A stretch of DNA of 64,000 bases. Source: a virus. Its lineage: Duplodnaviria > Caudoviricetes. Location: IMG/VR virus record IMGVR_UViG_3300028591_000129, positions 32,001-96,000 of that record; one strand, 5' to 3'. Position 1 is the stretch's first letter; the number at the start of each line of letters is the position of its first letter. The notes under the pieces are model-generated. The model ran no database searches. It had not been told where the DNA came from and saw nothing but the letters and a program-made list of their open reading frames with translations. The translations under genes were made by a program, and so were the position numbers. Shown in pieces: positions 16,619 to 41,489 of the stretch.

Positions 16619-16646
16619 TAAAAAGTCCCGCCTATTGGCGGGGCTT
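16619..16646 (-). terminator. Intrinsic terminator after the FtsK-like gene
   Basis: AAGCCCCGCC-AATA-GGCGGGACTT followed by a U-tract. Confidence 0.7.
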
Positions 16647-16671
16647 GTGGCTGTTGGCTGTCGTTGGAAGA

Positions 16672-17352
16672 TTAACGCTTCCAAAAAGCTATAAGCGGTT
16701 CTGTATCTACCTCGGGGAATGTCACGCGCTCGACCTTGCAACCTGTCTTGATTATTGCTTCCCCTATGCTCAACGTTTCCGCGCCTGCAATACCTAAAAT
16801 AACTCTGCTCTCTGATACTGAAGAAACGGGGACGGATACACGTGTATCAAGGTTACACTTCAAACGTGTTGGGATAACCTCTGCATTGATATTCTGTGTT
16901 GCACAGATTAACTGCACCCCTGCCGCACGTGCTATGCGTGCCAAACGCTCTAATAACTCAAAAGCTCTTTTACTTGTAAACGCAATGTCTGCAAGCTCGT
17001 CAACGATTATATAAAGCTTCGTGCCTGTATACTTGCGCGCGCCTGCTTGTTCCATTTCGCGGTAGCGATAGTCTACGAGTGCCAAGCACTTATTAAGCAA
17101 TGCCTCTATGTCCTCGGGCTCTGTCGCGTAGCCTGCGCAATGCGCTGTATGCTTAAAACGGCTCAACTCAACGCGCTTAGGGTCTATCAAAACCATTTGA
17201 CATTCTGCGGGGTTATGAGTGAGAATGTCATATATGATATTCTCAAGAAAAGTTGACTTTCCGCTTCCTGACGCGCCCGCGATTAATGCGTGGTGTGCGC
17301 TTGCTGTGATTGCTGAAAAGACGGGGTTTCTGTTGATTGTCATTGTTGCCAT
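16672..17352 (-). CDS. FtsK/SpoIIIE-family ATPase (motor domain only)
   Basis: H.LIAGASGSGKS, LIDPKRVEL, YIIVDELAD, ARAAGV.LI.ATQ, GAETL motifs; no membrane or gamma domain. Confidence 0.9.
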   Translation of the reverse strand: MATMTINRNPVFSAITASAHHALIAGASGSGKSTFLENIIYDILTHNPAECQMVLIDPKRVELSRFKHTAHCAGYATEPEDIEALLNKCLALVDYRYREMEQAGARKYTGTKLYIIVDELADIAFTSKRAFELLERLARIARAAGVQLICATQNINAEVIPTRLKCNLDTRVSVPVSSVSESRVILGIAGAETLSIGEAIIKTGCKVERVTFPEVDTEPLIAFWKR

Positions 17353-18815
17353 TGCTTACACCCCCTCTCTAATTGCCTTGATAGCCTTAATGTATCCCTC
17401 AACCTGCGAAACTGTCAGATAGTGACCAAAGCGGTTTAACAGCTCTGTTGCCTTGTCTGCGTCCCTAAACAGCTTAATCTGATTGTCGAGTAATACCCTA
17501 ATGTCTGCGGGGTTTATTCTTGTGTCTTTCATAGTGTTTTACCTCTTTGCTTTCTATGAGTTTTCGTGGGGAATTGCTCGGTATCCCCTACTAATAGTAT
17601 ACGCCTCTCTTCCTTATTTGTACATACCACTTTTCTAAACAAAAAGTTCAATATAGCTTAACTTGTATATGTCCCATTAATGGGGCACTTCCGTGCAACG
17701 GTTAGCACTGGCTAACTGATATGTCCTATTATTGGGATACAGAACAAACACGGCAAGCTGTCCCATTATACGGACACACTGTAATTGTCAAAACGACTTG
17801 ACACCCCTGCCCCTCAAAAATATTTTTCTGTCGGAGCTGACCCCCTGCCCTCGCGCGCACGCCTGCACGGGCGCATTCGCACGCTCGGAACTGCTGACCA
17901 AACCACAGCAAAAAGTTCGTTGCGAACTACACACTCCCCGTGACTGCGTTGGACTGCCCGCCTGCTGTCTGTTCTCTGCTGTCGGATATTCACTGCAAAA
18001 TAAAAGACACCTGCCGTGTTAGCAAGTGCCCTTTACTGCCTGTCTATACTGTCCGTATTACGCGTTATATATCGGTAGGCTTTCCTCTGCGATTACGCGA
18101 TACTTGCCGTGTATAATATCCTCTATTGTCTCTATATCGACGCCCCACGCGTCAGCTACGAAACGACGGCAAGTCTTATAGTTATTCTCTAATATCCTGC
18201 ATATAGCGCCATAGTTGTATTCGTCCTCGGGGCGCTGTTCAAGACGTGTCTCCATATCCTGCCACTGCTCGCGAAGTCTGCGAAGCTCGTTATAGATTGC
18301 TGTCTCTGCGTTATTAAGTACGATAATATCTGTATACATAATTATGTCTCCTGTCAATAATGTTGAGTATCGTTTGGCTCGGAATGTCAGCGCGGTCAGA
18401 CCATACGCCAACCGCACCAATATGCCTCGTTGTATCCGTCCACGAAAGCGTCCTCAAGGCTCTCCTCGCCCATTGCAAGCTCGCGCTCTGTAAAGTCGAG
18501 CACTCTCTGCTGAAAAGCAAGCTGTGCCTCATAGTATCTGTCCATTGCTTCCTCGAATGTAACCTGTGCGAATGTAACCTTTGCCATTGTTCTAATCTCC
18601 TTTATATGAGTTTTATGAGTGTTAGCACCTAACGTGCTTGTAAGTATAGTATATACCACATAGGATAAAATGCAATACATTTTTTCACATTTTCCAAAAA
18701 TTCTTTTTACCCGTCCTGACTGCCTACTCTCCAATCAAAACAAAACACCGATAATCTCGGTATCTTCAGGTGTCAGCTACACCTCTTTTCGTTGGTTTGG
18801 TATTTACAACGAGCA

Positions 18816-18870
18816 AAAATGTCAATCTGAAATTGACGTATCTAAAATGTCAATCTGAAATTGACGTATC
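18816..18870. repeat. Tandem 27-bp direct repeat, each copy containing an inverted repeat
   Basis: AAAATGTCAATCTGAAATTGACGTATC x2. Confidence 0.9.
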
Positions 18871-19799
18871 AGTGCGCGTGCCTGCCTGAAGAGTTCACAA
18901 TAGCCACCAACCGCCGACGAAATGCGGAAGCTACACGTCGTGCTGTGCGCACTCGGCTGTCCTGTCCGCCTGTCACTGAAGCATACAAAAAGGGGCGCTG
19001 TACACGCCCCCTGTCTGCTGTCCTGCGCTGTCCTTAATTCAGATACAGCACACGCCCTGTTACTGTCTTTACTCGTGACGGTTCACCGTGGAAATATCCA
19101 ACGACTGCCACATAGGAATTAACGATACCGTTAACTGTGCCCTCTTCGTAGTACTTGATAAGCTCTTCGTACTGTCTGCGCTTTACTTCCTGAAGTTCCA
19201 TTGCCTTGATAATGCTCGTTGTCATATTACTTCTCTCCTCTCTTCATTCTCTCGATAATTTCTGCCTTAACAAGCTCGTAGTCCTCGCACCTGTCCTCGT
19301 CAACGGGATTGAAATTGTTTACGTACCACAGAAAACGCTCCATAAGCTGTTCTGCCGTGTCTTTCTGAATGATTGCCTTATGTGTTGCTCTTCTCTCGTC
19401 TGTCATATGCTTATACCCCCTTTGTATACTCGCGAATTAAATATGCCTTATGTATCTGAATAGCGATACGCTTTGCCTGACGAAGCTGTGCTTCTGTAAG
19501 CTCGCGTCCTGCCTGTACTCTCTTTGCGAAAGAATGAACGTACTCGTATCCAATATATGTGTATACGGGTGCAACGTTATCAGCGGGAACGTTAACGCCT
19601 GCAAGCTCTGCGAGAAGCTCTGCCTCATTGGCGTAGATAGCTGTCCACTTTACGGGCTTCAAGCCCTCGCCATACTGTGCCTCTGTCTCTCTGCAAATTC
19701 TCTGTGCTTCATTAATAGTCATAATCAAATCTCCTGTCTATGAGTTTTCCGAACTGTGATTATAGATTAACATATCTCGTGGTAAATACAATAGGTTTA

Positions 19800-19828
19800 T
19801 GTTACAGTAATGTTACAAACAGATTACA
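19800..19828 (-). promoter_or_regulatory. 11-bp-period direct repeat upstream of a promoter (WalR/OmpR-type box); copies at 21079, 23441, 27377, 28303 (inverted), 28832, 31847
   Basis: TGTTACA-N4-TGTTACA-N4-GATTACA, read as TGTAAC-N5-TGTAAC on the minus strand. Confidence 0.65.
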
Positions 19829-21289
19829 AACGAGAGCAACAGGTTGACAACTACTTCAGAAGTCATTCGTCCTTCGCTCGGTCAGCTACATTCATTTTTG
19901 CCTCGAAGCAGACCTCTCGGCTTTCCTCTACTCGGCTCGGAAAACCTGCAAACCCCTGAAAACACTGCATTTGCAGGCAAATCAGCCCTCAAGTCAGCTC
20001 ACAGGCTGTGCGGAAGCTACACTCACGCCTCGTGCCTGCGATTGGCGCGTACCAAGAATGTCTGCAATAGAAAAACGGGAACTGTGCCCCGCTTCTCCTG
20101 TCGTGCTGTATGCTATGTTCTCGGACTTAACTTCTCATAGCACACGCCCAATTGACGGCGTCTCGTGCCATACCGTATTCCTTGCCTGTCAACCACACGA
20201 TACCTCGTGCGTCTCTGCCCATAAAGACGTCGAGCAAGTCTCCAAGGTCATTAATGAGCTTCTCGTACCTCTCGTCCTCTTCAGCAGTAAGCGTGCCGTT
20301 GAACGCCTTGTCAGAACGCTCATTCATAGCACGATTACGTCTGAATATAATGTCGTGCGCGTGCTTCTCTACGTTGAACGGATACCTCTTCTGTGCCATA
20401 ACTTATACCCCCTTTACAAGCTCGCAATTAGCAACGTTAATCTTACCGCCCTCTACGAAGTAAGCATATGTTGCTACCCAACGTCCATATCTGTCATTGA
20501 AGTCACAAATCTTACGAACTGTACCTATGAAGCCGTGCTCGATTGTTCTGCCCTTAACAACACGGACTGTATCTCCCTCAAGAATGATACCGCGAGAGTG
20601 CAGGAAAGCTCTGCGTGCTTCCTCGTTAATCTCCATATAGTACAGCTCGTCATTATCGTGTGAACCGTCAGCATAATCATAATCTCTAACACAACAGGAA
20701 TTAACCTCGTTAGTTACAGGATTATAGAAAGTTGCTGTAACGAATGTTCCGCCCTCGTGGGATACCTTATAGAACTTATTCTCTAACATTTGCTTTACCC
20801 CCTTATGCACGTTTAACACCGACGACTACTCCGTTTACCTCACGCTCGTCCATAACGTCGTCGTAACAGGACGTTGCAACGGCTACTTCCATAGCGGAAA
20901 CCGTAGCATTTCCACAAATAGCTACTGCGAGCCATCTTTCGACCTCAACCTCTTCTACGTAATTGGATACTGTGTACTTGAACATAATCAAAATCTCCTT
21001 TGCTTGTTATGAGTGTTCTGCACTTCCGTGCTTGTGAGTATAGATTATCACATTTCGTAGTGATTACAATGCCCTTTATGTTACAAATATGTTACAAAAC
21101 TGCACCAAATCGACAGCTCCGAGCGCCATTCAAAAGCTACACTCGCCCCAAAAATCACAGAAAATACCAAAAAGTGCCTCGAAAGCGGGCGGTCAGCTAC
21201 ACCTGTTTTTGCTCCGAGACGAATTGATGACAAACAAAAAGACGGAAGTTGTATCCGCCTCTCTGCATATATAGGAGATTTTAGATTGA

Positions 21290-21915
21290 TTACTCTGACT
21301 TTACTCTCTTCGCTGTTGCCTCTCTGTAATAGTTGTTGATATTGTCCTTGTCGCCTGTCTCAAGTTCGTCAGTGAACGGCATTCCTTTAACGTTTGTTCC
21401 GTTAACTCGTCTGTTGTCTCCGAAGCCCTGCACGGTCAATGTCTTGAACTCGCCTTTCCAATTCTGAACGATAATTCTGTCGCCCTTTTTAAGGTCTGCT
21501 GTCGGTACGTCTTCTGCGTGCCAATATTCTGCACCAATAGGGCGTGCCTGTCTCTCGTCGATAGCCTCAAGCATTTCGTTAAGCTCGTATGTATCCTGCT
21601 CTATTCCACGGAAATACTCGCGCCCTGTGATTTTCCACCCCTCGACAATGTATGTTCCGTTGTCGCCGTTGTCAGTGTCAAGTCTGTCCAATGTGTCGAT
21701 ACCTACGGAAAGTCCGTCGTCTCCGAAGAAGTTAGCGATAACCTGTGCAAGTCTTGCGAAGCCGTAGCAGTCTGTATCAGGTGCACGGAAACCTCTTATC
21801 TCGCAATACTTCAGGAAAGCTTCTACGCTGTCCCTGCCACCATTCCAATGAAGATAGATACCAATACCGTTATTCTCGAAGTTCTCACGTGTTGTTATAA
21901 CTGCTCTGTTGCCCA
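21290..21915 (-). CDS. Hypothetical phage protein (MGNRAVI...IYLHWNGG)
   Basis: Long ORF with SD GAGGAGG. Confidence 0.7.
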
Positions 21916-24374
21916 TTATCTTATACCTCCTCAAAGCTTGCTACTCTTGTTAAGTGGTTGTGATTTCCGCCTGTATACACCGTTGCGTGGTGCTCTTTTG
22001 CGTACTTAATAGCTGTATCCTCTTCCCATACATATGCGTGAACTGTCGCGTCCTTTGAGCTTCCTACCAAGAACCAATAACCATACATATAATAGTTATC
22101 GCGCCAGTCCTCAATGGAAAGATAGTGGTGCTTGTGTGTTACCATTCTGTCTGCTGTACTCATTGATAAAATCTCCTTTTGCTTGTTATGAGTTTTCCAA
22201 ATTGTGATTATACAATAGCAAAGTATTTACCACCTGTCAAGCATTATTTTCACATTTTCAGAAAAATAATTAAAAATACTACCGAACTCAACAAAGACGG
22301 GAGCTACAACTGTTTTAGATTGTTTGGTATTTACTGCTCGGCTCACCTGTCAGACAGTACCAAGGAAACCACTGCAAACTCCAACCACTGCCGACATTCA
22401 GCGCTTCCGAGAAGCTACACACTGTCGGTGGTCGGCGGGCTGTGCGCGTTTTCCTGCGCGACAAAAGGGCGGGATTTGTCGTCCCGTCCCTCTGTCATAA
22501 ATATAGGAGATTTCGCGTAGATTGTCTTAATGAATACGAACTAAAAGCTCCGCTTCAATTGCTGTCAGAATTCTATTCAAGTCCTTGTATCTGTCACTGT
22601 CTTGATGGTGAATGTATTCACGTGACGCGCGGGCTGAATAGTCCCTGTGGTAACTTAACAGGCGGGCGCTGTCAAGCTCTCTGCACTTTGCTGTTATCTC
22701 ATTAATATCAGTCAACATATTTTCACCCCTCTCTTAATTGTAATACCAAACGATATACTTGCTTTCTGTAACACGTCCCTGCGCGTCTCTCGCTTCCCAC
22801 GGTGTATAGTGGGCGGGTTTATGTGTCCTGATATATCTCGTGCAATGCGCGTTAATTCTGATAACCTCTGCGCGTGCCTCTCTTTCCGTGTCCGCGAATT
22901 CAAAAGTAAGTCTGTAACGTCCTCTCATTGTCAATCCTCCTCTACTGCCTTTCTGATAAGCTCCTGCTCTTCAAGCGTGATTAAGCCAAGAAGATACAGA
23001 ATATGTGTTGCACCCTTTGCCTGCTCCTGCACTTTAGTGTCGTCCCCAAGTGCGATACAGTTACGCAAATATCTGCGAAGCTCTCTGTTATCCTTACCAA
23101 GTCTCTCAACTGTCTCAAGCGCCTGTAAATACTCGTTCATTGTGTTTGTTCCTTTCTATGAGTGTTTATGCGATAAGCTCTGCGGGTGTTCCTAACAGCT
23201 CTGCTGTTCTTTCCTTGCTATATGTGAAAAGGTCGAAGAAATCTTCACTTGTGATAGCCTTATCATTAGCGATAGCCTGCAAAATGTCCATTACCTGACA
23301 GTTGCTTGTTGCTACTGCGATTAAAACCTTGTACATTCTTGCCTTTGTCATTTCCCCGTCCTGCCTTTCTATGAGTTTTCCTTTGTTAAGTATAGAATAT
23401 CACTTTCGGTGGTAAATACAATACCCCTTTAGCTGTTTTATGTTACAGTTGTGTTACAAACAGATTACACTGTCAATCTGCTCTTGACACCGCAGGCAAC
23501 AGGTGGCACTGTCAGCTACACCCGTTTTTGCTCTGAAACTGCTCCTCTCCGCCTGCTTCTGTCTACCGTCAGCTAACAGCAAAACGGCGGAAATGCCTGA
23601 TATTACTGCGTTTCAGCCTGTCCGTCAGCCCAACCGAACCACAGCAGACCGAGCTCCTCGCGCGAAGCTACACTTCGTGGGTGCGGAATTCGGGCATACA
23701 AAAAGCGGTCTGTGTGACCGCCTCTGCTTATTCTTCCTCGTCGGGAACTGCTATCTGTACCACTCGACCGTTCCACCAAACCTCTTTGCCTGTGACCTCT
23801 TCAAACATAAACACACAAGTCATAAAACGCTCGTGTACACGGTGCGCAATGTCTGTAAGGGATACTTCACACGCCTCAAGATACTCGCTGTAAAGCTCAT
23901 TCAGATAATCCAAAGACTTCTTCTCGTATTCTGTCAACTCTGCCATACTTGCACCCCCTCACTCTACGACAAACCTAACAACTACTCCGTCGTCCTCGTC
24001 TAACCACTCTTCCACAAAACCGTTATCCTCTCCGTCGTACTGCCAAGAATACGTTGTATCTATGACGTCGTCCTCTCTCCAAAGCTCAATCTGCATATCA
24101 GGTGCACTCTCCATATATTCGCTGTACTTCTCATAAAGACGGATTGCTTCCTTTACAGACTTCGCACGAACTACTTCGTCCATAACCTCGGCAAGTGTCA
24201 TAGTATTTGACGCCTCACCGCAGTACTTGTCCCAAGCTCGCTCTACCATTAAATCGTAATTGTCGTAAACGTACATTTTGAAATCTCCTTTGCTTGTTAT
24301 GAGTGTTTAAACTGTACTTACATTATATCACTTCCAATAGTGAATACAACCCCTAATTTACACTTTTTCCAAAC

Positions 24375-24392
24375 TGTCCCATTAATCGGACT
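24375..24392. promoter_or_regulatory. Palindromic operator-like site TGTCCCAWTAWTSGGACA; copies at 4830, 17670, 17722, 17759, 25518, 26442, 34565, 39707
   Basis: Recurring 18-bp dyad, mostly just upstream of -35 elements. Confidence 0.65.
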
Positions 24393-26011
24393 TTCTCGCG
24401 GAGCTACACCGTGTCGGTCTGTGCGTGGTTGGTCGGGGCTGTCAGAATTCGGGCATATTAAAAGGGCGGTTACTGTCCGCCCCTTATGTTATCAGTAGTG
24501 ATTGTATCCTGCTTCTGTGTGCTCTCTTGCAATCTGTACAACCTTTCTTGGATAATCGCCGTTAGGATAATATCTCTTAACCTGTGCGGGTCTTGCTATG
24601 AGCTTTGTGATAATGTCGTTTGTTGTGTTGTTGTAAACTATGATAATTCCGTTATCTGTCAGCTCGTGTCTCTCTAATCCGTGCCAATGTCCTCTGTCTA
24701 CGTAGAACTTGCCTATAACGTTTCCCTGTCCGAGGTACTTAATGAGCTCTTCGCGGTACTGTCTATCGTTCATATAGTGTCTGCTAACTGCCATTGTCTT
24801 TTCCCCCTTATGAGTGTTTTGAGCGATACCCTGTATCTGATTATAGAATATCACCTTTGGTGGTATTTACAATAGGTAAATCGTAGTGTTCACAATTCGT
24901 TAACATTTGCCAACTCTCCCTGTCACCACGGTGCGAAAAGGTCAGCTACACCTGAATTCTGCTGTGGGTTTGCGGGCATAATAAAACGCCCCTGTTAAGG
25001 GACGTCTTACCTCTGCTGTCAATGTGCCGTGTGCCCTATTATGCTACCCCCTCAAGCTTGATAGTTGCGGACAGTTTGCAAAGGTTGTTATAGTTCTTCT
25101 TGGTTACTGTCTCACCAATTACCTCTGAGCTCTCCTGTATTACTCTATAACAGCCCGACTCCAAAGGATAAAGAGTGTTAACAATATGCACGGGCTTGTG
25201 CACCTCTGTGATTGTGCCGTTCTCTCTGACGTACTCAGAGGCATATCTGATTTTGTGCTGTGTATATGTGCCGTCCTCGTGCTTGATATTCTTGATAAGT
25301 GCCTTTTCGCTCCAAAGTACATAATACTCAACGTCAAATCTGAAAGAGCCGTACTTCTTAGCCTCTGTATCCCACTTAATAGCCTTTTCTCTTGTAATGC
25401 TTGCCATTGTTCTAATCTCCTTTATATGAGTTTTATGAGTGTGTACCTATTGGGTACGATATGAGTATATACCACTATGCAATTCAATGCAAGCCCTTTT
25501 TTGAATATTTTTTCAGGTGTCCCATTATTCGGACAGTTTGCGAAGCTACACCGAGGCGGTTAAAAAGCGGGATTGCTCCCGCCTTGTGGTCACGCCTCTT
25601 CGTGCTCGATAAAGGCTCGAAGAATTGTGTCGCCTGCTACCTCTGCGTTCTGCCTTATCTGCTCGTCTGTAAGCTCGTTGTATTCCATTGACAATCTGAT
25701 AAGCTCAACTGCACGTTCTACCAACTGCTCGTGTGTTGCGTTGCGTGTGTCTGTCATACCTTGCACCCCCTTATGCTGTAAGCTCGTTGTATCTGTTCTT
25801 GAGTACGTCTACGCGGTATCTTGCCTGATTTGCGTAGTCCTCGTCGCCGTAATTGTTGATACGGATATTGTATACCTCGGTGTAATAGCGGATTTCTCGC
25901 CTAATCTCGCGTGTGTCTGTCATAGCATTAACACGGGCATTGATTACTTCTCTATATCCTGCGGGTACATAATAGTTAACGTTCATTTTCTTTCGTCCTT
26001 TCTATGAGTGT

Positions 26012-26326
26012 TTATGCAACCTTTTTAGGCTGTGTGCCAAGCTCTACCGTCTGCTCGTATGTGAAGAAAGACGTTGCGAAGTATCCGCGTGCTTTCTTGG
26101 GAGCTAAAAGGTCAATCTGTGCAACGTGTGTCTCGTCGTGTCTTACTTCACGTCCTACGAGTGTCCAACCATACCACGTTCTAACTTCGCCGTATGTGTC
26201 GCGGATTTCTGCTACTGCCTTTGCGTCTACCCAAGCAAGGTGCAGGCAGTTAGCGAATGTGCCATAGCGTCCGCTTCTGTATGCCTCGTGTGCCTTTTTC
26301 ATAATAAGCTTCTTGTCGTATCTCAT
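26012..26326 (-). CDS. Possible ArdC-N-like ssDNA-binding protein
   Basis: TWYGW...GREVR.DE...FFTYEQT resembles the ArdC N-domain pattern. Confidence 0.4.
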   Translation of the reverse strand: MRYDKKLIMKKAHEAYRSGRYGTFANCLHLAWVDAKAVAEIRDTYGEVRTWYGWTLVGREVRHDETHVAQIDLLAPKKARGYFATSFFTYEQTVELGTQPKKVA

Positions 26327-26783
26327 TGCTAAAATCTCCGTTCTATGAGTGCGTCAAGTTATCTAACTTGCACCTTAAGTATATCGAAGTACTTACCACT
26401 TGTCAACACTATTTTTAATAATTTTCCAAAGTCGCGCAAAGTGTCCCAATAATCGGACAGTTTTCAGAAGCTACACTGCGTGATATTTCGCAGAAATGGC
26501 TCGGGGAGCTACACCTGTTTTCCTGCTGAAACGGAACTGCATTAGAAAAGGTGGGCTTGTCAACCCACCCTGTATGCAAGGTACTCGGTATTCCCTACCG
26601 TGCCACCGTACATTCCTGTACGTCCTCGTTTTAGCTTGTATCCGACGTATTCTGTGACCTCGTCAAGCCCTTTGCAGTATATCTCAGGCGCGTTCTCTAA
26701 CGCCTGCATATATGCGTCCCTGTCCATTCCTTTAGTAAGCTCAACTTTCTTTACTGCGTAGATATTCATATACTGACACCCCC

Positions 26784-27302
26784 TTATGCTGTCTTTCCAT
26801 TAACGGGCTCTTTAAGGAACTTCTTGAGCTGTCGCGCTGTCTTGAAGCCGTCGAACTTAAGTCCTGCAAGCTCTGTAAGTTTTACGTCTTCCTTATACAG
26901 AATATCCCAATAGGTGTAATCTGTTGTGAATGACCTGTACAAGAAGTCGCAACCCTCGGGAGAATAACCTGTCTCTGTCTCCATTGTATGCGCCCACATA
27001 CCGTTAGCACAACCGCTGACGCCTACCTTGAAGCAGACATAGCCTGTGAAGCCAAGCTCGATAGCTGTCTCCAAGAACTGCCTCATTTGGTAAAGCCTTG
27101 TCAGTGACAGCTTGTCAATCCACCAATCGAAGATTGACAACTCTTTGCACACCTCGCGCATTTCAAAGTACAACGGTGTATAATACTTGCGCTCGCAGTA
27201 AGACATATTGTCCCAATTAGCCTTTCTCTCCTCAAGAATAAAGATACGCTCGTTTACCCTTGCCAATACTTCCTGTGCGTTCTTGTCTGAATACTTACCC
27301 AT
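26784..27302 (-). CDS. Hypothetical protein
   Basis: 172-aa ORF after ACTCATA-SD. Confidence 0.65.
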   Translation of the reverse strand: MGKYSDKNAQEVLARVNERIFILEERKANWDNMSYCERKYYTPLYFEMREVCKELSIFDWWIDKLSLTRLYQMRQFLETAIELGFTGYVCFKVGVSGCANGMWAHTMETETGYSPEGCDFLYRSFTTDYTYWDILYKEDVKLTELAGLKFDGFKTARQLKKFLKEPVNGKTA

Positions 27303-29135
27303 TGATTTAATCTCCTTTACTGTTTATGAGTTTGTTTTACTGTACCCATATTATAGCGCGTACTACCCGCCCTGTGTGTTACAGTTGTGTTACAAACACA
27401 TTACAGCGCGGACAGCCACGGCGAGCCCCAACCCCCGACGGGCACGCACCGCGGAGCGGTTGGTGTAGCCACCTCGCAGGGGCAAAGAAAAACGGGGTGA
27501 ACCCCCGCTTCTCAACCGTCTGCCCACTCTCGGGCTTCCTTTAGATTGTCCTGATACTCGTCAGCAGTAATCGGTAAGCTTACCGTGTAAATCGGGCTTC
27601 CGTCTGTCCAATCGTAAATCGCGGTGACTGTGCACCCGATAGACTGAAAAGCACACGCGACCTCGTCCCCATAGGTAGTCAACCCGTAATCGGACACTAT
27701 TTTGTTAATGTAGGTCGCTACGTTACTCTCGTCTATGCCCCAATCACTCCACTGTACCCTGCCTGCAACTTCCCTGATATTATCCGCTGTCAACATATCG
27801 TCTACCCCCTCAACGCTCTATACCTGCAAGCTCGTCATACCTCGCGTCTGCCAAGCACTGCCAACGCTTGATAGTATGGTCAGAGTGAACGTTCTTAACG
27901 AGCTTCCTGACGTCGTCATAGAATGTATCAACATTAGTAAGCGTATTGAGCTTGTCAATTCTCTTATAGTCGTTTCTTTCCATTGCGTAATCGTATGTCA
28001 TTTTGTTTTACCCCCTTAAATAAGCTTCCAACCGATACCCTGTGTCTTATACGCGATACCGCAGTAATCGAGAACCTTTACAACGTCAGAATTGATTGTC
28101 GTGGTCTGCTCGCCACGGTAAATATCCACTAACTCGTAGATACCATAAGGAGTAATACTGATACCCCTTACAGCGTGACCGTCCATAAGTGCGTTGATAA
28201 CATTTGCTAACTTTTCCATACTGAAATCTCCTTTGTATGAGTTTTAAAATTGTGCCTTTAGTTTATCACGGTGGTATTCACATTGCAAGCGATTTCACGT
28301 TTTGTAACCTGTTTGTAACATTCAGTCAGGGGCGTCGGTGGCTTCTCTGAAGCTACACCTCGCGGGTCGTGTGGTCGGCTGTGCTCGGGGCATAAGAAAA
28401 GGGGCTTCCTGCCCCTTAATCCCACTCAAGATATACGTCAGTGATATGTTCGTTGTCGACCCCCATACATTCTCGACAGTACCGCTTAGCCTGCCTGCTA
28501 CTCACTGCTCTGCACCTGTAATGATAATGAATTCCGCACACGACGTATACGACACAATACGGCTTTAACTGCATACTCACACCCCCTCTATTCTGATAAT
28601 GTCTTCCTTGCCAACAGTCTTATAGTTGTATCTGTCAACCTTGAAGTAATACAAGCTTGTTCCGTCAGGAATGAAATAGCTTATTGCGTGAAGCTTACGC
28701 TCAAAATCAACGCAAGTATAGGGACTTGTGAAGTGTCTTTCTCTGTAAATAACTGTCATACCGATAATCTCCTTTACGTGTTATGAGTTTTCTTAATGTG
28801 CCCACAGTATAGCATATGTGACTGCTCCGTAGGTTACAGCTGTGTTACAAACAGGTTACAAAAGCAAGCTCGAAGTTGACAGCTCCGAATCAACGAGTCG
28901 GCAGAAGCGAGCTTTCAGCTACACCCCAAAAATAGCAAAAGTTGCTCCAAGGTCAGTATTCCGACTGCGGGATTAGCGGTTTCCTGCACGGAAGCAATGG
29001 TTTTATCGGTGCTCGGGTCTCTACTCGCTTATAACACGTCTTACCGTAGCCCAATATCCGTGCTTCCTCGTTCTTCAGCCTGCGCCCACAGCGCAAACAG
29101 TACTTGTACTCTTTCATTCCTGCCTGCCCCTTATA

Positions 29136-30059
29136 TTAGAATATATGCGACAGTGCGTATTCCACTGCCACAGCGTCGTCTACTTCTCCTGTCTTTATCC
29201 CTTTCTCTACTGCCTGCAACACCTTAAGAAACTGCACAAGGTCAGCTCCGCCCCAAAAGCCCAAGTTCTTCTTCGCGCACTTCACGTCCCACTGCGACAG
29301 CCCCGTTGTAGCGCACACGTCACTGCTTGCACACGTCTGCACCTGTAAAACACGCTTCATATTGGTATAAAGTACGCTAATTAGCCTTAAAGACGGCTCT
29401 CCTATCGCCTTGCAGTCCTCTAAAAGCATATATGCTCGATATGGGTCAGCTCTCAACACTGCGTCAGTAAATGCGAAGATAGCGTCAGTCGGTGGTCGGT
29501 GTATCGTACCGTCCTCAACCAATCGGGAAAACGCTTCGTCAGGAGCTACATTCGTTTCTTGTGTGTACTGCTGTACCTTGTCTATCTCTAAAAGAATTCG
29601 TCCGTAGTTTTGCTCGCACAGCATAATTAACTGCTCGGTGTGCTCGTCAGATAGTGAAATCTCCTTTTGCACGTACTTATACAACACGTCAACGTCCATA
29701 TAATTAAATGTAACTACCTTATCCTTGAAGAAATTATAGAATTTTGTACGCTTATCTACCGTGGTTATCTGAAAAATGAGCATTTTATCACCTAAAAGGG
29801 CGTCTATCTCGTCCCACGCGTTCTCTGCCTGCATAAATTCCTTGTCGTCGCGCACAACATACAGTGTCGGTCTCGGTATCAAACCCGTCCTTTTACGTAG
29901 GGCGAAAGCTACACTATCTGTGCGTTCCACGGTGCGACCTGTGACCTCGGCGATTTTGTTAATGTATATACGCTGTGCCTCTATCTCGTCCCCTGTAAAT
30001 ATATAAAATGGGTCAAGATTTTTACCCATAATCTGCTTTTTTACGGCGTTAATCTCCAT
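29136..30059 (-). CDS. holA: DNA polymerase III delta subunit-like clamp-loader protein
   Basis: FYIFTGDE, VDKRTKFY, EIDK, IFAFTDAVL, E.GIKTG motifs. Confidence 0.75.
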   Translation of the reverse strand: MEINAVKKQIMGKNLDPFYIFTGDEIEAQRIYINKIAEVTGRTVERTDSVAFALRKRTGLIPRPTLYVVRDDKEFMQAENAWDEIDALLGDKMLIFQITTVDKRTKFYNFFKDKVVTFNYMDVDVLYKYVQKEISLSDEHTEQLIMLCEQNYGRILLEIDKVQQYTQETNVAPDEAFSRLVEDGTIHRPPTDAIFAFTDAVLRADPYRAYMLLEDCKAIGEPSLRLISVLYTNMKRVLQVQTCASSDVCATTGLSQWDVKCAKKNLGFWGGADLVQFLKVLQAVEKGIKTGEVDDAVAVEYALSHIF

Positions 30060-30069
30060 AGAACTTCTC

Positions 30070-30735
30070 CTACTCGAACTCTTTGTAATTTTTCATTCTC
30101 GAACCACAGAAAGAACAGTACCGCAGATAATATCCCGTTACGAGGCTGTCACTGTTGTACGCCGAATTACGACAGTTAGAACACCTCAAACGGTATCTGT
30201 CACGCCCCACAGCGGTTGTTTTGGACTGCACAAGCCACATACCGTCCCGAGTACCGTCGTCAGCTTTCAACGCTAAAATAGCCCTGTTTACGGCTGTCTC
30301 AAGGTTACTTCCGCGATGTATGCTCCGCTTCAGGTACTTCAAACATACAATTGCTTCTTCATTCGTCATCTCATTCATTGATTCGTCTCCCTGCGTCGGG
30401 CGGGGAGCTACACCCGCTTTTTCACAAAAGTTCTCCTTTGAGGACTTCCTGCTACTTCTTATGTTCGTTCCGCGTATAGTGGATATTGCGTCTGAAAATT
30501 CCCGTACCTCACGGTCAACCTCACCGTCAGCTTCATAATTCTCCTGTCGGTCAGGGCTGTCAGACACCGTATCCTCATTATCTGCCTCAACCTCTGCCAA
30601 TAGCACGTCAGGAATACCTAATGCTTCCTTTGCGTCAGACACGAACTGTCCAAATAGTTCTAATAAACGTCCCCAACTGTCTATTAAGGTACGTAAATCA
30701 AGCTCAACCGAACTCTCTTCTTTCTTATCTGCCAC
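30070..30735 (-). CDS. Hypothetical protein with C-terminal Zn ribbon
   Basis: CSNC...YCSFCGSRM. Confidence 0.5.
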   Translation of the reverse strand: MADKKEESSVELDLRTLIDSWGRLLELFGQFVSDAKEALGIPDVLLAEVEADNEDTVSDSPDRQENYEADGEVDREVREFSDAISTIRGTNIRSSRKSSKENFCEKAGVAPRPTQGDESMNEMTNEEAIVCLKYLKRSIHRGSNLETAVNRAILALKADDGTRDGMWLVQSKTTAVGRDRYRLRCSNCRNSAYNSDSLVTGYYLRYCSFCGSRMKNYKEFE

Positions 30736-31052
30736 GTCCTCACTCTCCTCTCCTCGTTATCATATCTTTCCTCGGCTACCCGTCCTCGGCAGTCAGCTTC
30801 TCCTTACTCACGCGCACACGCGTATCCTACGGTCTGCCACCCACAGGGTCAGCTTCCAAAAATTTTTCCTATCCGCACCCCGATTAATGTAGTTTTCCGC
30901 CAACTACTCGTCGGGTACTACCTCATATTCCAAGTACTCGGGGCACAGCCTCGCCATATCAGTGTATGCCTCATAACAGTTATCCCTAAACTGACATGCG
31001 TCACACCCTGAATTCTTGGTGGGGTCGCGTGCACTGTCAGAACTTGCCATAG

Positions 31053-31777
31053 TCAGCTCGCTCTCCTTAATACAAGATTGCCGTCCTCGGACTTCAGGGT
31101 ATACTTCGGATTATTCTCAAGGAACAGCTTGAACTGTCGAAGCAGATTATCCGCACCATTCACGAAAATATCTCTATCCGTAATAGTGAAACCCTCACCG
31201 TCGGCATAATACAGGAAGTCGTCGTATGTGCTATCCATTTTAACACCGCCTGTCTTTGCAAGCCAATAACGGATTACGTACTCCTGTCTGTCTCTGTAAT
31301 TGTCACGCCAAAGGAATTCTGCATTACCGATATGAAGCTCATTCGTCAGCGCACTTGCCTGCTCGGTATACTCTGCAATCTTCTTACTTCCTCGCTCTGT
31401 ATTGATTTCAGGCTCAAGATACAGGTATACTTGATTATTCTCTGCACGCAAAACAGGGAAGAAGCACGCGTCTGTCTTCGCTGTCCACTCGTTTATCTGC
31501 CTATCAAGCTCTCTGCACTCCAATATGGTCATACATTCACCCCCTCGGGGATATTCTCGTACATTGCCATACGAAGAATGTCCCTATCCTCAAATGAGAT
31601 TGCTCCTGCATAATAAAGTGCCTGTGTGAAGCCTCTGAAGTACTCCTCGGATAACTTACACGCCTCGTCCTTTGCGTGCGTGCGTACAAGTGCATTTCTG
31701 AATGCCTTACGGTCAAGTGTTGCATTGTCTGCACACGCTCTGTCAATAATCTCAAGTGCTCTCTCAAAATTTGTCAT
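31053..31777 (-). other. Two hypothetical genes (31529-31777, 31053-31532) in an ACTCATA cassette
   Basis: ORF track; ACTCATA at 31795; WalR-like box at 31847. Confidence 0.6.
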
Positions 31778-31867
31778 AGTTTTAATCTCCTTTGTATGAG
31801 TTTCTAATTTGATAGTTATATACTACCACAGAATTCACCACTGCAATGTTACAGTTATGTTACAAAG

Positions 31868-32398
31868 TCAGTCGCCCTCGCGACGATACGGATAATGCAC
31901 GTCATAGTAAGTATCAAAGAACGGCTGAAAGTCATAATCATAATATACACGCCTCTTGTGACCCCCGATAGTGTAGCTTCCCGCAAGCTCCGCGTCATAC
32001 TTAATGCTCTTATCTCCCCTGTCTCTTACCGCCTGTGCAGTCTGTATCGGAATGAACCTTGTCACGTCTCGGTCAACCCACCAAACAAGTAAACCTGCTA
32101 CAACACCGCGGTGGTGGCTCGCCTCGGTCAGACCGTCCCACTGTGCATTACTGATATTTCCATAGATATGCTGTCCTGTTGGGTCGTTACTGAATATCGG
32201 AAGTCTGTTACCGTGAACTGATTTACACTCGAACATATAAAAAATACCCTGACGATACACGATAATATCGCAAGGGTTGGCAATTCCTTTAAGATACGGC
32301 GGTGGGTCGTACAGGCGCAAGGAATAGGCGTCTGTCCTATCCAACGCTTCTCTTACCTCGTCCTCAAAGGGCTTTCCTACGTTCTTCCTTTTAGCCAT
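31868..32398 (-). CDS. recU: RecU-like Holliday junction resolvase
   Basis: N.GK.FE...PCD.I.Y......FECKS...NI...Q...L PD-(D/E)xK pattern. Confidence 0.7.
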   Translation of the reverse strand: MAKRKNVGKPFEDEVREALDRTDAYSLRLYDPPPYLKGIANPCDIIVYRQGIFYMFECKSVHGNRLPIFSNDPTGQHIYGNISNAQWDGLTEASHHRGVVAGLLVWWVDRDVTRFIPIQTAQAVRDRGDKSIKYDAELAGSYTIGGHKRRVYYDYDFQPFFDTYYDVHYPYRREGD

Positions 32399-33885
32399 TA
32401 AGCGGTTCTTCCCTGCTCCATAAACAAGTCCATTTCGAATTCTTGGAACTTACGCCACATAAGCTCAAGCTCGTCTGCACCCATTTTACCAATAAGTGCA
32501 ATCATTTTCTCCCTCTTTTGGTCAAGGTCAGCAGTATACTCTCGCCACAGCTCCTCTTGGAATACTCTCTCTGTATTTGTCATATCATTTCTCCTCTCGA
32601 TTCGTACTTTTGGATTTTCTTGGGTGTAGCTCCCTGCCACCTCTGACTGCCTTTCCACCAATCGCTCTTACCCAACTGTTGTTTCTCCTGACACGTCTCT
32701 TAATCTCACGCACCACGTCTTTCTTATATCTCGTGAACTGCTCGTCTGTACAACACCTCTCCAACTCCCTAATCAGCTTATTCACGCCGACCTTATAGAG
32801 CTGTTCGCGTGTTAATGGTGCTTCCTCTGCTTCCTGTCTAAACAGCTTCCGATAGAAGTTAAGCTTCATACATACCTCATTCTGCTCATTCCGCACCGTG
32901 GACACCTGACCACTGCGTACTTATATCTCTCGTCCATTGCTATCCGCTTCCCACACCTCGCGCACACGAATACGCGCTTACGTTCTATCACTCAAAGTGA
33001 CCCCCTGATACTATTTTTAACGGGGAATTTATGTAGTTTTTAGCCCCACAGGCGCTTATCAAAGCAAGTCAGCCTGTGTAACGAACACGTTCTGCCGTCC
33101 GTCACCAATATCCTCGTAGCCCATAACCCAATCAGTATTCTCTGACAGGAACTTCAGCAAGTCATTCATTACGTCAACGGTAAGCTTGCTCGGCTCGATA
33201 ATAATGTTCCCCATATATTCATTATAGAACCCGCCAAGGTTATATGAAAATACCAATTCGTATGTTTTCTTTCCCTGCTCTGTAAGCATTCCTATTCTCC
33301 TCTCACCAAATGAACATTGTAACTTTTGAGTTGCAGTAAATCTCAACCTTGTTCTCGAAGTAAAGTACAAGGTATTCGTGGTTCTCGTCAATCTCGTCAA
33401 CGATTTCCTCAAGCACTTCTGCTTCCTTACCGCCCTCAATAACGTCCCACCTACGAAGTCCTGTGAACTCAAGTAACTCTTCGTCCTCGGGTACGTCGTC
33501 AGCCATATAGATACGGCTTCCACGCTCATACTTATTCTTCTTGGATACATAAAGACGTACCTCTGCCTCTGTAAGGTCAGGGTGGAATAATGTGCCTGTG
33601 TATGTTCTCTTCATAGTGTTACCCCCTCATACGTTATTTGCCCTAATACAGGCAAGTCTGAAGTTAGAAGCAAAGCAGATATGTCTGCCATTACAAGACG
33701 AAATAGCATAATCCTCGTCCCTCGTAATGATATATGCACGACCACCGAACGTTCTATAAAAACCCTCGCTAATCTCGATAACGTTGTATTCTTTTGCGAT
33801 TTTCTCCATTACAGGTGTCATATGCGTCTTCTCCTTTTATGAGTTTTCTAATGTGTCTTTACAATAACATAGTAACGAAAGAATG

Positions 33886-34491
33886 TCAAGCGTGAATATA
33901 CAACGCACGCTTCTTGCTGTCGGCTGTGAAGTAAACATAATACCTATTACCCTCACGTGTAACCTTAAGGATATTCTTCTTGGGCGTTGTGGCATAACCT
34001 CTCTGCTTCTTAACAAGCTTATAGATAAGTGCCAACCTTGCAGGGTCAGTTACTACTTCCCTACGGTCATTTCTACGCGCCTGTAAGCGTGCCTCGCGCA
34101 ACTCAATGTGCCGCTTTGCATTCTCAATTGTATCTACGAAAGCTTTTCTGTCGTCAATGGAATACCAAATCTTCTCTTCCACTAACTCTCCCTCGCCACC
34201 CCACAGGATTGCGAATGTGTCGAGTGCAGGGGCTCTCTTGTTCTCAAACTTCTCAACGGTAAGATTAACCGTATGTGTTCTAAAGTCATAGTCGTTCTCG
34301 GCAACTTTCATATAGTCTCTGTCGAGCTTAATGCGATAGATATACTTACCGTCTGTTACATCAATACGGCTGATTTCGCCTGAAGTGCCCGACATTGTAC
34401 CAACGTTAATCTCCATACCCTTTGCAAGGTACTCATTAACCTTATTTGTGAATGCTGTTCTGATTTCATTTGCCAAGATTACGTTTTCCAT
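33886..34491 (-). CDS. Hypothetical protein in a single-gene ACTCATA cassette
   Basis: 201-aa ORF; promoter TTGACA near 34565 overlapped by the palindromic site. Confidence 0.65.
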   Translation of the reverse strand: MENVILANEIRTAFTNKVNEYLAKGMEINVGTMSGTSGEISRIDVTDGKYIYRIKLDRDYMKVAENDYDFRTHTVNLTVEKFENKRAPALDTFAILWGGEGELVEEKIWYSIDDRKAFVDTIENAKRHIELREARLQARRNDRREVVTDPARLALIYKLVKKQRGYATTPKKNILKVTREGNRYYVYFTADSKKRALYIHA

Positions 34492-34743
34492 AGTGTTATC
34501 TCCTTTACGTGTTATGAGTTTTATGATTATGAGTACATACTACTACGGATATTGAGGGTTGTCAATACCATTAATGGGACAGTTTAAGATTTTTCTGAAA
34601 AATTATCCCTTAATCCGCTCGTCCCTGCTGAAAACCTGCTTACAGAAACGACAACGCCAAGGCTTATCTGCCTTAACAAAGTAAGGTGCGTCATTTCCAC
34701 AATAAGGACAATAGAATATCTTCTCTTTCTTCTTTGGCTTCAC

Positions 34744-35301
34744 TTACTCAACCCTCACTGTTATATTTCGCCTGCTTGCTAAATAATCACACATATGTAC
34801 AAACTGCTGTTCTCTTGTAATAGGTTTATCTAATACCACGTCTGACTTCGGTGACGTATTCCACTGTCCCATATGACTTCGGACTAAATGGCATATCGTA
34901 TTCACCTGACTTATCGGTAAGTCTGCTCGGTTAAGCACCATAAACCCCTCGAAGCAATCCGACGCTACGTTCGGGTGGTCAAACACAGTATGTCCTGCGT
35001 CTATGTCACCGTGCTTAAAGGTGTCGTGTATGATACACGCAGTGATTATCTCGTCGTGATAGTTGATATTTAAGTCCTGATACTGCTCAAGCTGAAGTAA
35101 TTCTTCGGCTATCTGAACGACTGCCTTTGTGTGCCTGACCAAGCCACCTACACCCAAGGCATAGGACGGGTGGTATTTCCCTGACGAACTCGCGGGTACG
35201 GTGAAAAAATAGGGTGGCACGCAACTGTCGAGGTAGCGCGCAACCCATAACTTAAGCTTCTCGTCTCGTATCAACTTAACTTCGGCTAACAAATCACTCA
35301 T
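34744..35301 (-). CDS. HD-domain phosphohydrolase
   Basis: PASSSGKYHP...GGLVRHT...IHD..K...SHMG.W...DYLASR. Confidence 0.85.
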   Translation of the reverse strand: MSDLLAEVKLIRDEKLKLWVARYLDSCVPPYFFTVPASSSGKYHPSYALGVGGLVRHTKAVVQIAEELLQLEQYQDLNINYHDEIITACIIHDTFKHGDIDAGHTVFDHPNVASDCFEGFMVLNRADLPISQVNTICHLVRSHMGQWNTSPKSDVVLDKPITREQQFVHMCDYLASRRNITVRVE

Positions 35302-35736
35302 ATGTCTGCAATGACCTTTACTTCGGCTTTCGTGACCATATCAGTCACGCTGAAATACTCCAAACGCCCCGTGTCAAGCCTTACTGCCACGCCTTTATCA
35401 GGGTCAGACTCCTTTGGGTCAAACACTTTCATATACAGTGTGTCAGTCTGATAAAAAGCGTCACCGTATTCCAAGTCACTAAAACAGACAGAACACGCAT
35501 TATAACAGGCAACTTTCATTTCCGCACCACCTTGTTCAAGTATTTGTCTGCCCAATCGTTCATTGCTCCCTGTAATTCAAGCTTTGCTTCCTTATCAAGG
35601 TGTCTGATACGTGGGTTATCAACATAGTACATATCTATATTATCCCAAAAGCTATTTAGACACAATACCGCCTGCCTAAATCCGTTAACGTAATCTTCAC
35701 TGTGCATTGGTAGCTACATTTCCTTTCTGTATTCAC

Positions 35737-36261
35737 TTATGTTCCGATGGACTGTTTGGTCATAATGTACTCATTGGTACGTCTTGTGAGAACTTTCTTA
35801 CAAGAACTCATAAGCTCCTGCGCGTTCTCTACCTTTGACTTCATAGTCTTAAAGGCTCTTGAATAGCAAATACTGACCAACTGCTCCTGCTGTGACGCTA
35901 TCTCCGCTCGGCTGTTCTTATCCTGAACTGTTCCTTTCGTCTCGTCTCGGGCGCTGTTAAATGCTTCCTTATAGACTGCATTGGATATGTCGTCTCTGAT
36001 ACCCAACTGCTCTTGTCCACCGCCTGCCCAATAGATATAGGCGGCGAGGTTCATACAGAAATCTTCAAGCTCTTGGTCTGACGGCGGGTTATTACCGTCC
36101 TTAAGACAATCGGATACGAACTGCACGTAATTATCCAAGTCTCTGATGTACGGCTCGATAATCTCTGCTACGATACTGTCTATCGTCTGTGAGTTAGTCT
36201 CTACGTGAAGTCTTATCTTACTTACTGCCTCGGGGTTAACTGAACTGAATAAAGTACTCAT
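35737..36261 (-). CDS. Helical protein, possible recombination mediator
   Basis: Coiled-coil ORF near the exonuclease gene. Confidence 0.35.
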   Translation of the reverse strand: MSTLFSSVNPEAVSKIRLHVETNSQTIDSIVAEIIEPYIRDLDNYVQFVSDCLKDGNNPPSDQELEDFCMNLAAYIYWAGGGQEQLGIRDDISNAVYKEAFNSARDETKGTVQDKNSRAEIASQQEQLVSICYSRAFKTMKSKVENAQELMSSCKKVLTRRTNEYIMTKQSIGT

Positions 36262-37905: not shown

Positions 37906-38398
37906 TTTAATTCTTCTCCCCCTATCGGCAGTCCCTCTACGCTGTCCATTATTGCGTTATATATAGTCCGCACAATATGCACGGGGTCTCCGTCGTGTGC
38001 GTATGCCCACGCGTCAATGTCTGCACAAAGTGTTGCACAGAACCACTCAAAGTTATCTATACGCTCCAACGCGGTCTTTGACGCAAGGGCGTACTTCTCG
38101 TATGTCTCGTAACCTGACATTATGCTTCCTCTCCTTTTACTTTACCTGTATATTTTCTGCTTCTTGCAACCAGTTGCTTAAGTTCTTCCAAATCTTCGTT
38201 AACATATGGACTGCCTGTGCACTCTACTAACCTTTTGTCAGATAGCAGTTTATATAACGCACGTGCATTATTCAGCAAGTCAGTCGTATCTGCTTCTATA
38301 TTACACATATGTATAAGTAAACAAACCACCTCTATACATAAGGATACAAGCATAACAATAACCATAGTCTTCTCAAAAACTGTCATAATTCCCTCCTC

Positions 38399-41446: not shown

Positions 41447-41489
41447 ACTCTCCTGACCGTACCTGCCTCTTCCTTATCGTCTCGTATTC

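Follow-up and report, generated by a model that had tools for sequence, protein, structure and literature searches.

A thirteen-unit array of small-gene cassettes with shared regulatory blocks in an uncultured phage genome

The stretch analysed here, hereafter the window, is a 64,000-nucleotide segment (bases 32001-96000) of the 104,810-bp IMG/VR virus record IMGVR_UViG_3300028591_000129, which is rated complete and for which no end repeats are reported. On the minus strand, between window positions 16627 and 28952, lies an array of 13 back-to-back units (U0-U12) of 0.53-1.37 kb each, in good agreement with the roughly 13 units of 0.5-1.2 kb that a first-pass annotation had read from the sequence. 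Every unit combines a spacer and a promoter with an ACTCATA leader that includes a strong ribosome site, and ends, after one to four small open reading frames (ORFs), in an intrinsic terminator. The unit map was obtained by reading the minus strand, and each element was then located by script. In the following list, octamer stands for GTGTAGCT and palindrome for TGTCC-N8-GGACA.

U0, 28385-28952, minus strand: ORFs 28577-28759 (60 amino acids, aa) and 28416-28574 (52 aa), terminator ~28390-28417; octamer 28917-28924, three phased TGTAAC repeats 28833-28860, -10 TATACT 28806-28811, ACTCATA 28782-28788
U1, 27478-28384, minus strand: ORFs 28016-28219 (67 aa), 27810-28001 (63 aa) and 27512-27796 (94 aa), terminator ~27486-27512; octamer 28351-28358, inverted TGTAAC repeats 28303-28319, TTGCAA...TAAACT promoter with -10 28260-28265, ACTCATA 28236-28242
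U2, 26535-27477, minus strand: ORFs 26784-27302 (172 aa) and 26560-26769 (69 aa), terminator ~26547-26572; no exact octamer, GGCTACAC in opposite orientation near 27465, three phased TGTAAC repeats 27378-27405, no recognisable -35, -10 TATAAT 27350-27355, ACTCATA 27325-27331
U3, 25555-26534, minus strand: ORFs 26012-26326 (104 aa), 25771-25986 (71 aa) and 25590-25757 (55 aa), terminator ~25563-25585; octamers 26507-26514 and 26469-26476, palindrome 26442-26459, TTGACA-17-TATACT 26378-26406, ACTCATA 26344-26350
U4, 24975-25554, minus strand, single gene: ORF 25039-25407 (122 aa), terminator ~24978-25012; octamer 25544-25551, palindrome 25518-25535, TTGCAT...TATACT promoter with -10 25464-25469, three ACTCATA copies 25425-25466
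U5, 24450-24974, minus strand, single gene: ORF 24492-24794 (100 aa), terminator ~24460-24484, then TATGCCCGAATTC; octamer 24944-24951, degenerate repeats, TACCAC-type promoter with -10 TATAAT 24840-24845, ACTCATA 24809-24815
U6, 23690-24449, minus strand: ORFs 23959-24276 (105 aa) and 23728-23946 (72 aa), terminator ~23700-23724, then TATGCCCGAATTC; octamer 24402-24409, palindrome 24375-24392, -10 TATAAT 24322-24327, ACTCATA 24298-24304
U7, 22455-23689, minus strand: ORFs 23166-23351 (61 aa), 22931-23140 (69 aa), 22734-22928 (64 aa) and 22527-22718 (63 aa), terminator ~22460-22496; octamers 23666-23673 and 23514-23521, three phased TGTAAC repeats 23442-23469, -10 TATACT 23389-23394, ACTCATA 23370-23376
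U8, 21228-22454, minus strand: ORFs 21921-22163 (80 aa) and 21290-21916 (208 aa), terminator ~21236-21264; octamer 22413-22420, TTGTAGCT 22302-22309, AT-rich upstream tract, TTGACA promoter with -10 TATAAT 22207-22212, ACTCATA 22187-22193
U9, 20062-21227, minus strand: ORFs 20803-20985 (60 aa), 20403-20789 (128 aa) and 20127-20399 (90 aa), terminator ~20069-20098; octamers 21195-21202 and 21135-21142, TGTAAC repeats 21080-21096, -10 TATACT 21037-21042, 5' hairpin, ACTCATA 21008-21014
U10, 18980-20061, minus strand: ORFs 19411-19722 (103 aa), 19227-19406 (59 aa) and 19034-19225 (63 aa), terminator 18990-19012; octamer 20015-20022, ATGTAGCT 19884-19891, three phased TGTAAC repeats 19801-19828, -10 TATAAT 19759-19764, ACTCATA 19739-19745
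U11, 17995-18979, minus strand: ORFs 18396-18587 (63 aa) and 18058-18339 (93 aa), terminator ~17999-18039; octamers 18929-18936 and 18775-18782, AT-rich tract, TTGCAT...TATACT promoter with -10 18643-18648, two ACTCATA copies 18605-18620
U12, 16627-17994, minus strand: ORF 17356-17532 (58 aa) and FtsK/SpoIIIE-like ATPase 16672-17352 (226 aa), terminator-like site 16627-16642; GTGTAGTT 17925-17932, palindromes 17759-17776, 17722-17739 and 17670-17687, -10 TATACT 17596-17601, ACTCATA 17555-17561

All 13 units display a -10-like hexamer 12-34 nt 5' of ACTCATA, which is followed by a AAAGGAGAT-type ribosome site and ATG, and later genes within a unit have TAAGGGGGT-type coupling ribosome sites. 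Consistent with the hairpin terminator predicted earlier for each unit, the 12 unit ends that were tested all fold as an A-tract, GC-stem and U-tract structure at -13 to -23.5 kcal/mol, with folding z-scores of -3.3 or below in nine cases and of -0.9 to -2.6 in the remaining three; the terminator of U12 is a pattern match only and is not among the 12. Since each unit has its own promoter and every tested end folds as a terminator, the sequence supports the interpretation of the units as autonomous expression cassettes. TACCAC, described before as frequent in the promoter spacer, is found at four of the 13 promoters and is missing from the other nine.

Non-coding DNA accounts for 34% (3890 bp) of the array region. 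Its coding density, 0.665 versus 0.815 genome-wide as estimated with a crude ORF caller, is the genome minimum. The spacer cores, measured from terminator to promoter, are 39-354 bp long and have a GC content of 52.4% versus 44.4% for the genome; the earlier description of GC-rich spacers applies to these cores and not to whole intergenic regions, which range from 41 to 54%. The 3' side of the units is semi-conserved: the terminator tail is followed by TATGCCCG (twice with GAATTC next to it), a C-rich run and the octamer. TATGCCCG had been thought to follow the terminator often; it does so as TATGCCC in 4 of 12 cases and as looser variants in two more, the rest being without it. In two instances, U7 and U8, the stop codon is directly followed by AAATCTCCTATAT (22495-22520 and 21265-21285), the reverse complement of the leader ribosome-site region AGGAGATTT, so that the 3' end of the transcript could pair with the leader.

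The cargo of the array comprises 29 small ORFs of 52-208 aa (mean 85), which are not paralogues of each other in an all-versus-all comparison. None has a significant match in Pfam or PHROGs, and ESM Atlas look-ups of array ORFs returned unnamed clusters only. The AF2 model of U4a (pLDDT 80) has no fold match in the PDB or BFVD, and that of U8b is poor (pLDDT 39). The small ORFs nevertheless look like real genes because their codon-position GC profile (0.51/0.35/0.50) is that of core genes (0.51/0.36/0.53). Collectively, these data support the view that the array genes are small, fast-evolving ORFans. The FtsK/SpoIIIE-like ATPase that closes the array in U12 (PF01580, E = 2.6e-29; PHROG 1358) represents the motor core only, and no FtsK gamma domain is found in the genome. 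This ATPase is ~99% identical in a close relative of the phage and has a homologue in one of 80 related 20-kb loci, both considered below.

The leaders are reused nearly verbatim on unrelated genes, as the first-pass annotation had stated. U4 and U11 share 42 identical nucleotides (18581, 25401), U6 and U9 share 27, with U8 nearly the same, and 22-nt copies at 23150 and 25996 precede the second genes of U7 and U3. By comparison, the longest string shared by chance between random 140-nt segments has a mean of 7.2 and a maximum of 11 nt, and the ORFs behind identical leaders are unrelated (all-versus-all best E = 0.003). The predicted combination of a promoter with ACTCATA and a ribosome site is present in every unit, but ACTCATA is not specific to the array: there are 40 copies on the minus strand of the genome versus 7 on the plus strand, and half of the copies lie outside the array. 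There they follow consensus TTGACA-N-TATG-N-TATAAT promoters that precede genes of the replication, packaging and effector/head regions. The ACTCATA leader is the general expression signal of this phage and not a mark of the array. Two copies are intercistronic, inside operons, and related phages have their own leader dialects, namely, AACACTT(A/G) in locus L139, including an intercistronic copy, and AAACTC in locus L124; ACTCATA would therefore exert its effect on the mRNA, through its translation, processing or stability. When IMG/VR was searched for the leader as a DNA pattern, only single chance matches turned up.

Upstream of the promoters a single common box had been described; instead, there are two distinct elements and a boxless class. 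The first element, TGTAAC(A) repeated two or three times with an 11-bp period, is found at seven promoters: those of U0, U1 (inverted), U2, U7, U9 and U10, and one outside the array:

31848-31864, minus strand: TGTAACA-N4-TGTAACA box, with ACTCATA at 31795-31801, upstream of ORF 31529-31777

The U5 promoter has a degenerate version of these repeats. The pattern TGTWAH-N5-TGTWAH has 16 matches versus 0.67 expected, all of them within 19800-31864 and upstream of seven promoters. It corresponds to the published WalR/VicR consensus, of which TGTWAHA-N4-TGTWAHA is the Streptococcus mutans form (PMC4168254), and the phage repeats fit the latter exactly, including the A in the seventh position. As in the WalR/VicR regulon promoters of Bacillota, direct repeats with an 11-bp period lie upstream of the -35 or replace it; the difference is that here the predicted sites are on phage promoters and often comprise three repeats. 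Indeed, several promoters with such repeats have a poor -35 or none, and at U0, U2 and 31.8 kb, where the repeats abut the promoter, no -35 can be recognised, as is the case for activator-dependent promoters. An OmpR-type DNA-binding domain is not encoded by the phage, and no phage sigma factor was found in it by its Sigma70_r4-type domain, which makes a host regulator the likelier reader of the repeats. The TGTAACA repeats are thus probably bound by a host response regulator of the WalR/VicR type. No report of phage promoters using WalR was found in the literature searched.

The second element is the palindrome TGTCC-N8-GGACA, present in six copies in the array, one each in U3, U4 and U6 and three in U12. 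The U12 copy at 17759-17776 overlaps the -10 box of a TTGACA...TATAAT promoter, and the palindrome holds -10-like hexamers on both strands. It probably represents the operator of a dimeric repressor. U8 and U11 are boxless, with AT-rich upstream tracts only. The spacer of U11 (~18815-18875) contains a tandem 27-nt repeat, each copy with a palindrome GTCAAT-N5-ATTGAC, which may be a third kind of operator.

Nearly all genes of the phage are on the minus strand, and the array is located between the clamp loader and pre1 on one side and the effector and head genes on the other. The main landmarks in the window are:

4847-6721: portal
28953-29117, minus strand: pre1, a 54-aa Cys-rich ORF directly after the clamp-loader gene
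29136-30059: clamp-loader delta subunit
39743-41446: TerL (terL), intein-bearing
41655-42362: TerS (terS)

Other genes code for a split family-A DNA polymerase, a clamp, a TET-associated glycosyltransferase and a primase. The conserved backbone ends ahead of the array with pre1, which tblastn detected in 67 of the 80 related loci. The absence of an integrase, noted earlier, extends to the whole genome: the PF00589 and PF00239 profiles for tyrosine and serine recombinases detected no integrase or resolvase, and the phage is therefore probably virulent. Rfam and tRNA scans found only a tRNA-Gln (49490-49564), outside the array, and no Rfam match within it. A megablast search of the array DNA against 50,697 phage records and a single-protein clamp-loader search in IMG/VR gave no match. 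Relatives of the clamp loader (710 matches) are numerous in gut and rumen metagenomes, and some are binned with metagenome-assembled genomes (MAGs) of Ca. Fimenecus, Lachnospiraceae and Ruminococcaceae. Together with AAGGAGG-type ribosome sites and TTGACA/TRTG-TATAAT promoters, these bins suggest that the host probably belongs to Clostridia.

The cassette content of the array differs among relatives. In the 80 related IMG/VR loci, which have clamp loaders of at most 58% identity, 3 of the 29 array ORFs (U2a, U3a and U5a) recur, at other positions. U2a and U3a form one operon upstream of the clamp loader in L139 and L140, in reversed order, and homologues of U5a lie upstream of the clamp loader in L124 and downstream of it in L137. 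L124, the 58% relative, has no array after the clamp loader but an eight-unit one before it, with the same layout and its own motif dialect. In L124 (11060-11400), the clamp loader is followed by a gene with a low-complexity, repeat-rich tail (AGAGCA-type) and then by a C-rich non-coding tract, TerS and TerL, so that gene order around the clamp loader differs between relatives. A closer relative is represented by a 219,928-bp ENA contig with cluster-mates of 15 of 30 array proteins at 83-100% identity (FtsK-like ATPase, 99.1%; U3a and U7a, 98%; U5a and U7c, 100%). Full searches of 5.8 billion proteins revealed no homologue on this contig for U4a (seven homologue clusters) or U6a (two homologue clusters); U6b is present, and the neighbours of U4a and U6a are kept at 98-100%. 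Moreover, a 13,180-bp Logan contig carries U4a at 96% identity together with a clamp loader of only 76% identity. Within units, sharing with the close relative, compared at the protein level only, is patchy by single genes and does not follow whole octamer-to-octamer blocks. Differences in cassette content of the kind that the model of the first-pass annotation predicts are thus seen in relatives and, judging from these sequences, cassette content turns over between near relatives independently of the backbone.

Two known systems resemble the array. The PeSL elements of T4-type phages are repeated blocks of terminator, early promoter and ribosome site that flank ORFans in hyperplastic regions and bring about modular shuffling, with homologous recombination between the blocks as the proposed mechanism, and even form mini-circles (Arbiol et al. 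2010, PMC2839356; Comeau et al. 2014, PMC4122927). The array likewise has repeated blocks with a terminator, a strong host-sigma promoter and a ribosome site between ORFans, with 22-42 nt of exact identity, and is a plastic region between core modules with gene content that varies among close relatives. It differs from PeSL in its Gram-positive-style signals, in units of 1-4 genes and in the addition of WalR-type repeats, a palindromic operator and a polar octamer. Furthermore, terminator and promoter are 40-350 bp apart here, whereas in PeSL they are interleaved within ~100 bp, so that the array lacks the compact element. The host-takeover module of the Bacillus phage SPO1 comprises 26 small genes in 12.4 kb, arranged in many operons with strong promoters and ribosome sites; it lies in the terminal redundancy and is proven to be early and host-toxic, its products shutting down the host (Stewart et al. 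1998, summarised in PMC6873191). The array comes closest to this module in scale (29 small genes, 11.6 kb, 13 units) and probable host type, and is similar in its strong sigma-A promoters and ribosome sites and in products mostly of unknown fold, but no array ORF has PHROGs-level homology to gp37-gp60, and no Sigma70_r4 match was found. Because of this lack of homology, the array is no member of either system by descent. The cassette concept itself is already established by PeSL; what distinguishes the array from both systems is its long spacers, three promoter classes including WalR-type boxes, and polar octamer.

Overall, we interpret the array, with a probability of about 0.7, as a hyperplastic accessory region, most likely an early or host-takeover block, made of insulated cassettes that are shuffled by homologous recombination. 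The exchangeable platform envisaged by the first-pass annotation is supported in part, by the autonomous units, the ORFan cargo and, at the protein level, a content varying independently of the backbone. The thirteen insulated transcription units would be read by the host sigma-A RNA polymerase. Each transcript would start a few bases past the -10 and carry, in some cases, a 5' hairpin, then ACTCATA and the AAAGGAGAT ribosome site; downstream genes would be coupled through TAAGGGGGT-type sites, and transcription would stop at the strong intrinsic terminator. Owing to such insulation, the gain, loss or replacement of any unit would leave the adjacent units unaffected. Control would be combinatorial through the three promoter classes, namely, TGTAACA repeats, the TGTCC-N8-GGACA operator and plain TTGACA promoters with AT-rich tracts. 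Flanking homology would be supplied by the 5' blocks (box, promoter and leader) and the 3' blocks (terminator tail, TATGCCCG, C-rich run and octamer), and homologous recombination between co-infecting relatives would shuffle the ORFs as in PeSL elements. In this scheme we infer the early timing of the units, recombination at the shared blocks, the host-directed function of the products and the identities of the regulators.

Several points weigh against this interpretation. The same sigma-A-type promoters and leader also precede replication-, packaging- and effector/head-region genes, so that the term 'early' is applied by analogy only. The SPO1 module is located at a genome end, whereas the array is on a linear record for which end repeats are not reported, and the 40-350-bp spacers and the octamer are superfluous to a PeSL-type model. 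As to turnover, a missing 90%-identity cluster-mate is no proof of absence for the shortest ORFs, the full searches covering U4a and U6a only, and the treatment of two 13,180-bp Logan records as one contig is deduced from their shared source and length.

The minus strand of the 104.8-kb genome holds 17 copies of the octamer GTGTAGCT, all of them within 18775-30413, whereas ~1.6 copies per strand are expected. Fifteen of these copies lie in inter-unit spacers of the array; the copy at 29914 is in the clamp-loader coding sequence, and that at 30413 is just upstream of the pre3 start (30378), within a longer GTG-start ORF (30070-30735). One or two octamers per spacer had been reported, and exact copies in this number do precede 11 of the 13 units; the U2 and U12 spacers contain variants only. 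The copies, given by the 5' base for the minus strand, and related sites are:

30413, 29914, 28924, 28358, 26514, 26476, 25551, 24951, 24409, minus strand: GTGTAGCT, first nine
23673, 23521, 22420, 21202, 21142, 20022, 18936, 18782, minus strand: GTGTAGCT, other eight
31971, 32624, 39654, 43607, plus strand: GTGTAGCT, four copies within 31971-43614
41509, 41573, 41639, plus strand: GTGTAGTT, three copies with a ~65-bp period between terS and terL

The orientation switches between 30413 and 31971, where the 17 minus-strand and four plus-strand copies separate perfectly (chance ~1 in 3000), and a Holliday-junction-resolvase-like gene is located at this switch. Two flavours can be distinguished: a promoter-proximal one, GCAAAAACRG-octamer-GAC, and another lying 25-45 nt beyond the terminator, C-rich run-octamer-TCNGC. 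No imperfect palindrome surrounds the octamer. Look-alike motifs occur in relatives, GAACAGTGTAGAT seven times in L144/L146 and (G/T)TGTAG(G/T) in six of the eight L124 spacers. A family-wide GTGTAG element was rejected, since GTGTAG is not enriched upstream of promoters in the 80 pooled relatives. The octamer is part of the spacer grammar, our best guess for its role being a DNA-level site for a phage protein.

Two further observations concern octamer-like sequences. The gap between terS and terL (41447-41654) contains three GAAAAACTACAC on the minus strand with a ~65-bp period, interleaved with repeated GGTATAACGTACA; these repeats are a candidate pac site, and their core resembles the array octamer. 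In 5-20 kb of several relatives (L124, L125, L127-L130, L139, L140, L144, L146, L151, L164, L166 and L167), GTAGCT is absent on both strands, where ~1-5 occurrences per strand are expected, which may reflect avoidance of an AGCT-containing site. AGCT is not avoided in the phage described here (410 observed versus 381 expected).

The octamer and the long spacers also invite explanations other than an accessory region of shuffled cassettes. They might serve a genome-level DNA function, such as replication, TerS packaging, T5-like nicking or translocase guidance, the small genes merely filling the gaps. We regard this as unlikely. The clean strand switch, the pac-box-like triplet of one-mismatch copies between terS and terL and the adjacent FtsK-like motor gene would all fit, as would the behaviour of GAACAGTGTAGAT in L144/L146, which keeps its orientation relative to the clamp loader though the cassettes are inverted; however, the copies are confined to ~25 kb of the 105-kb genome, and the pooled relatives show no GTGTAG enrichment. 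An origin at the polarity switch was rejected, because neither repeats nor inverted repeats occur there, nor is there a GC-skew inflection. A KOPS/SRS-type guide is weakened by the same confinement and by the FtsK-like protein being a motor only, the gamma domain (PF09397) being absent from the genome. Slightly less probable is an integrase-free array that shuffles itself, with GTGTAGCT as a nick or exchange site for a phage enzyme, whole cassettes moving from one co-infecting phage to another, for example as circles, and the WalR-type boxes tying the cargo to the host cell-wall growth sensor. An integron-like platform, in which GTGTAGCT is the crossover or nick site of a phage enzyme that moves whole cassettes, appears more doubtful still. 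As in integrons, unrelated small genes stand in tandem, parted by a repeated, oriented short motif; same-strand octamers precede most units, single cassettes are present or absent among relatives, and the ATPase at the array end and the resolvase-like gene at the polarity flip could be brought into such a scheme. Recombinases of the tyrosine and serine types, however, are lacking from the genome, every cassette brings its own promoter and terminator, the octamer is not accompanied by an attC-like imperfect palindrome and numbers 0 to 2 per spacer, and the patchy sharing with the close relative is by single gene.

Small RNAs, sense or antisense, encoded in the long spacers are a very improbable alternative. 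There is room for them, with 1.9 kb of spacer DNA that is neither promoter nor terminator; the A-tract terminators could act both ways, and the palindrome has -10-like hexamers on both strands. Nevertheless, folding z-scores of the 12 core spacers of at least 60 nt are ~zero on both strands, except for U10>U11 and U11>U12, Rfam gives no matches, and consistent plus-strand promoters are missing. To a Chi-like signal shielding the injected DNA from the host AddAB/RecBCD nuclease we assign the lowest probability of all. A strand-specific 8-mer with an orientation flip is what would be expected of Chi facing DNA ends, but no physical end is known near 31 kb. This candidate is further weakened by octamer counts in three MAGs with related phages and 401 Clostridia genomes, which show no over-representation (the top count, ~128 copies in 5.1 Mb, is at or below random), with the limit that these 404 genomes may not include the true host.

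If the array is indeed a hyperplastic accessory region, it extends the idea of mobile regulatory cassettes, known from PeSL in T4-type coliphages, to uncultured gut phages of Clostridia. Such regions hold the most rapidly changing weapons that phages have against their hosts, and because the 29 unknown genes come in ready-made units whose promoters, leaders and terminators are precisely defined, it is easy to clone them and to test them for inhibition of growth or for counter-defence. If a host WalR-type regulator does read TGTAACA, the accessory genes of the phage would be wired to an essential bacterial growth sensor. Phased TGTAAC(A) repeats beside strong promoters are also found in other viral contigs of IMG/VR (loci L204-L318, e.g. 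L220, L212 and L218), and two such loci, L239 and L243, are on the same 127-kb contig. Among 124 matches to TGTAACA-N4-TGTAACA...TATAMT, 51 have a third in-phase half-site (chance ~1%), and in some a series of 4-6 repeats extends into the -35. Since these contigs carry many different metagenome identifiers, OmpR-family-type sites may be widespread on phage promoters.

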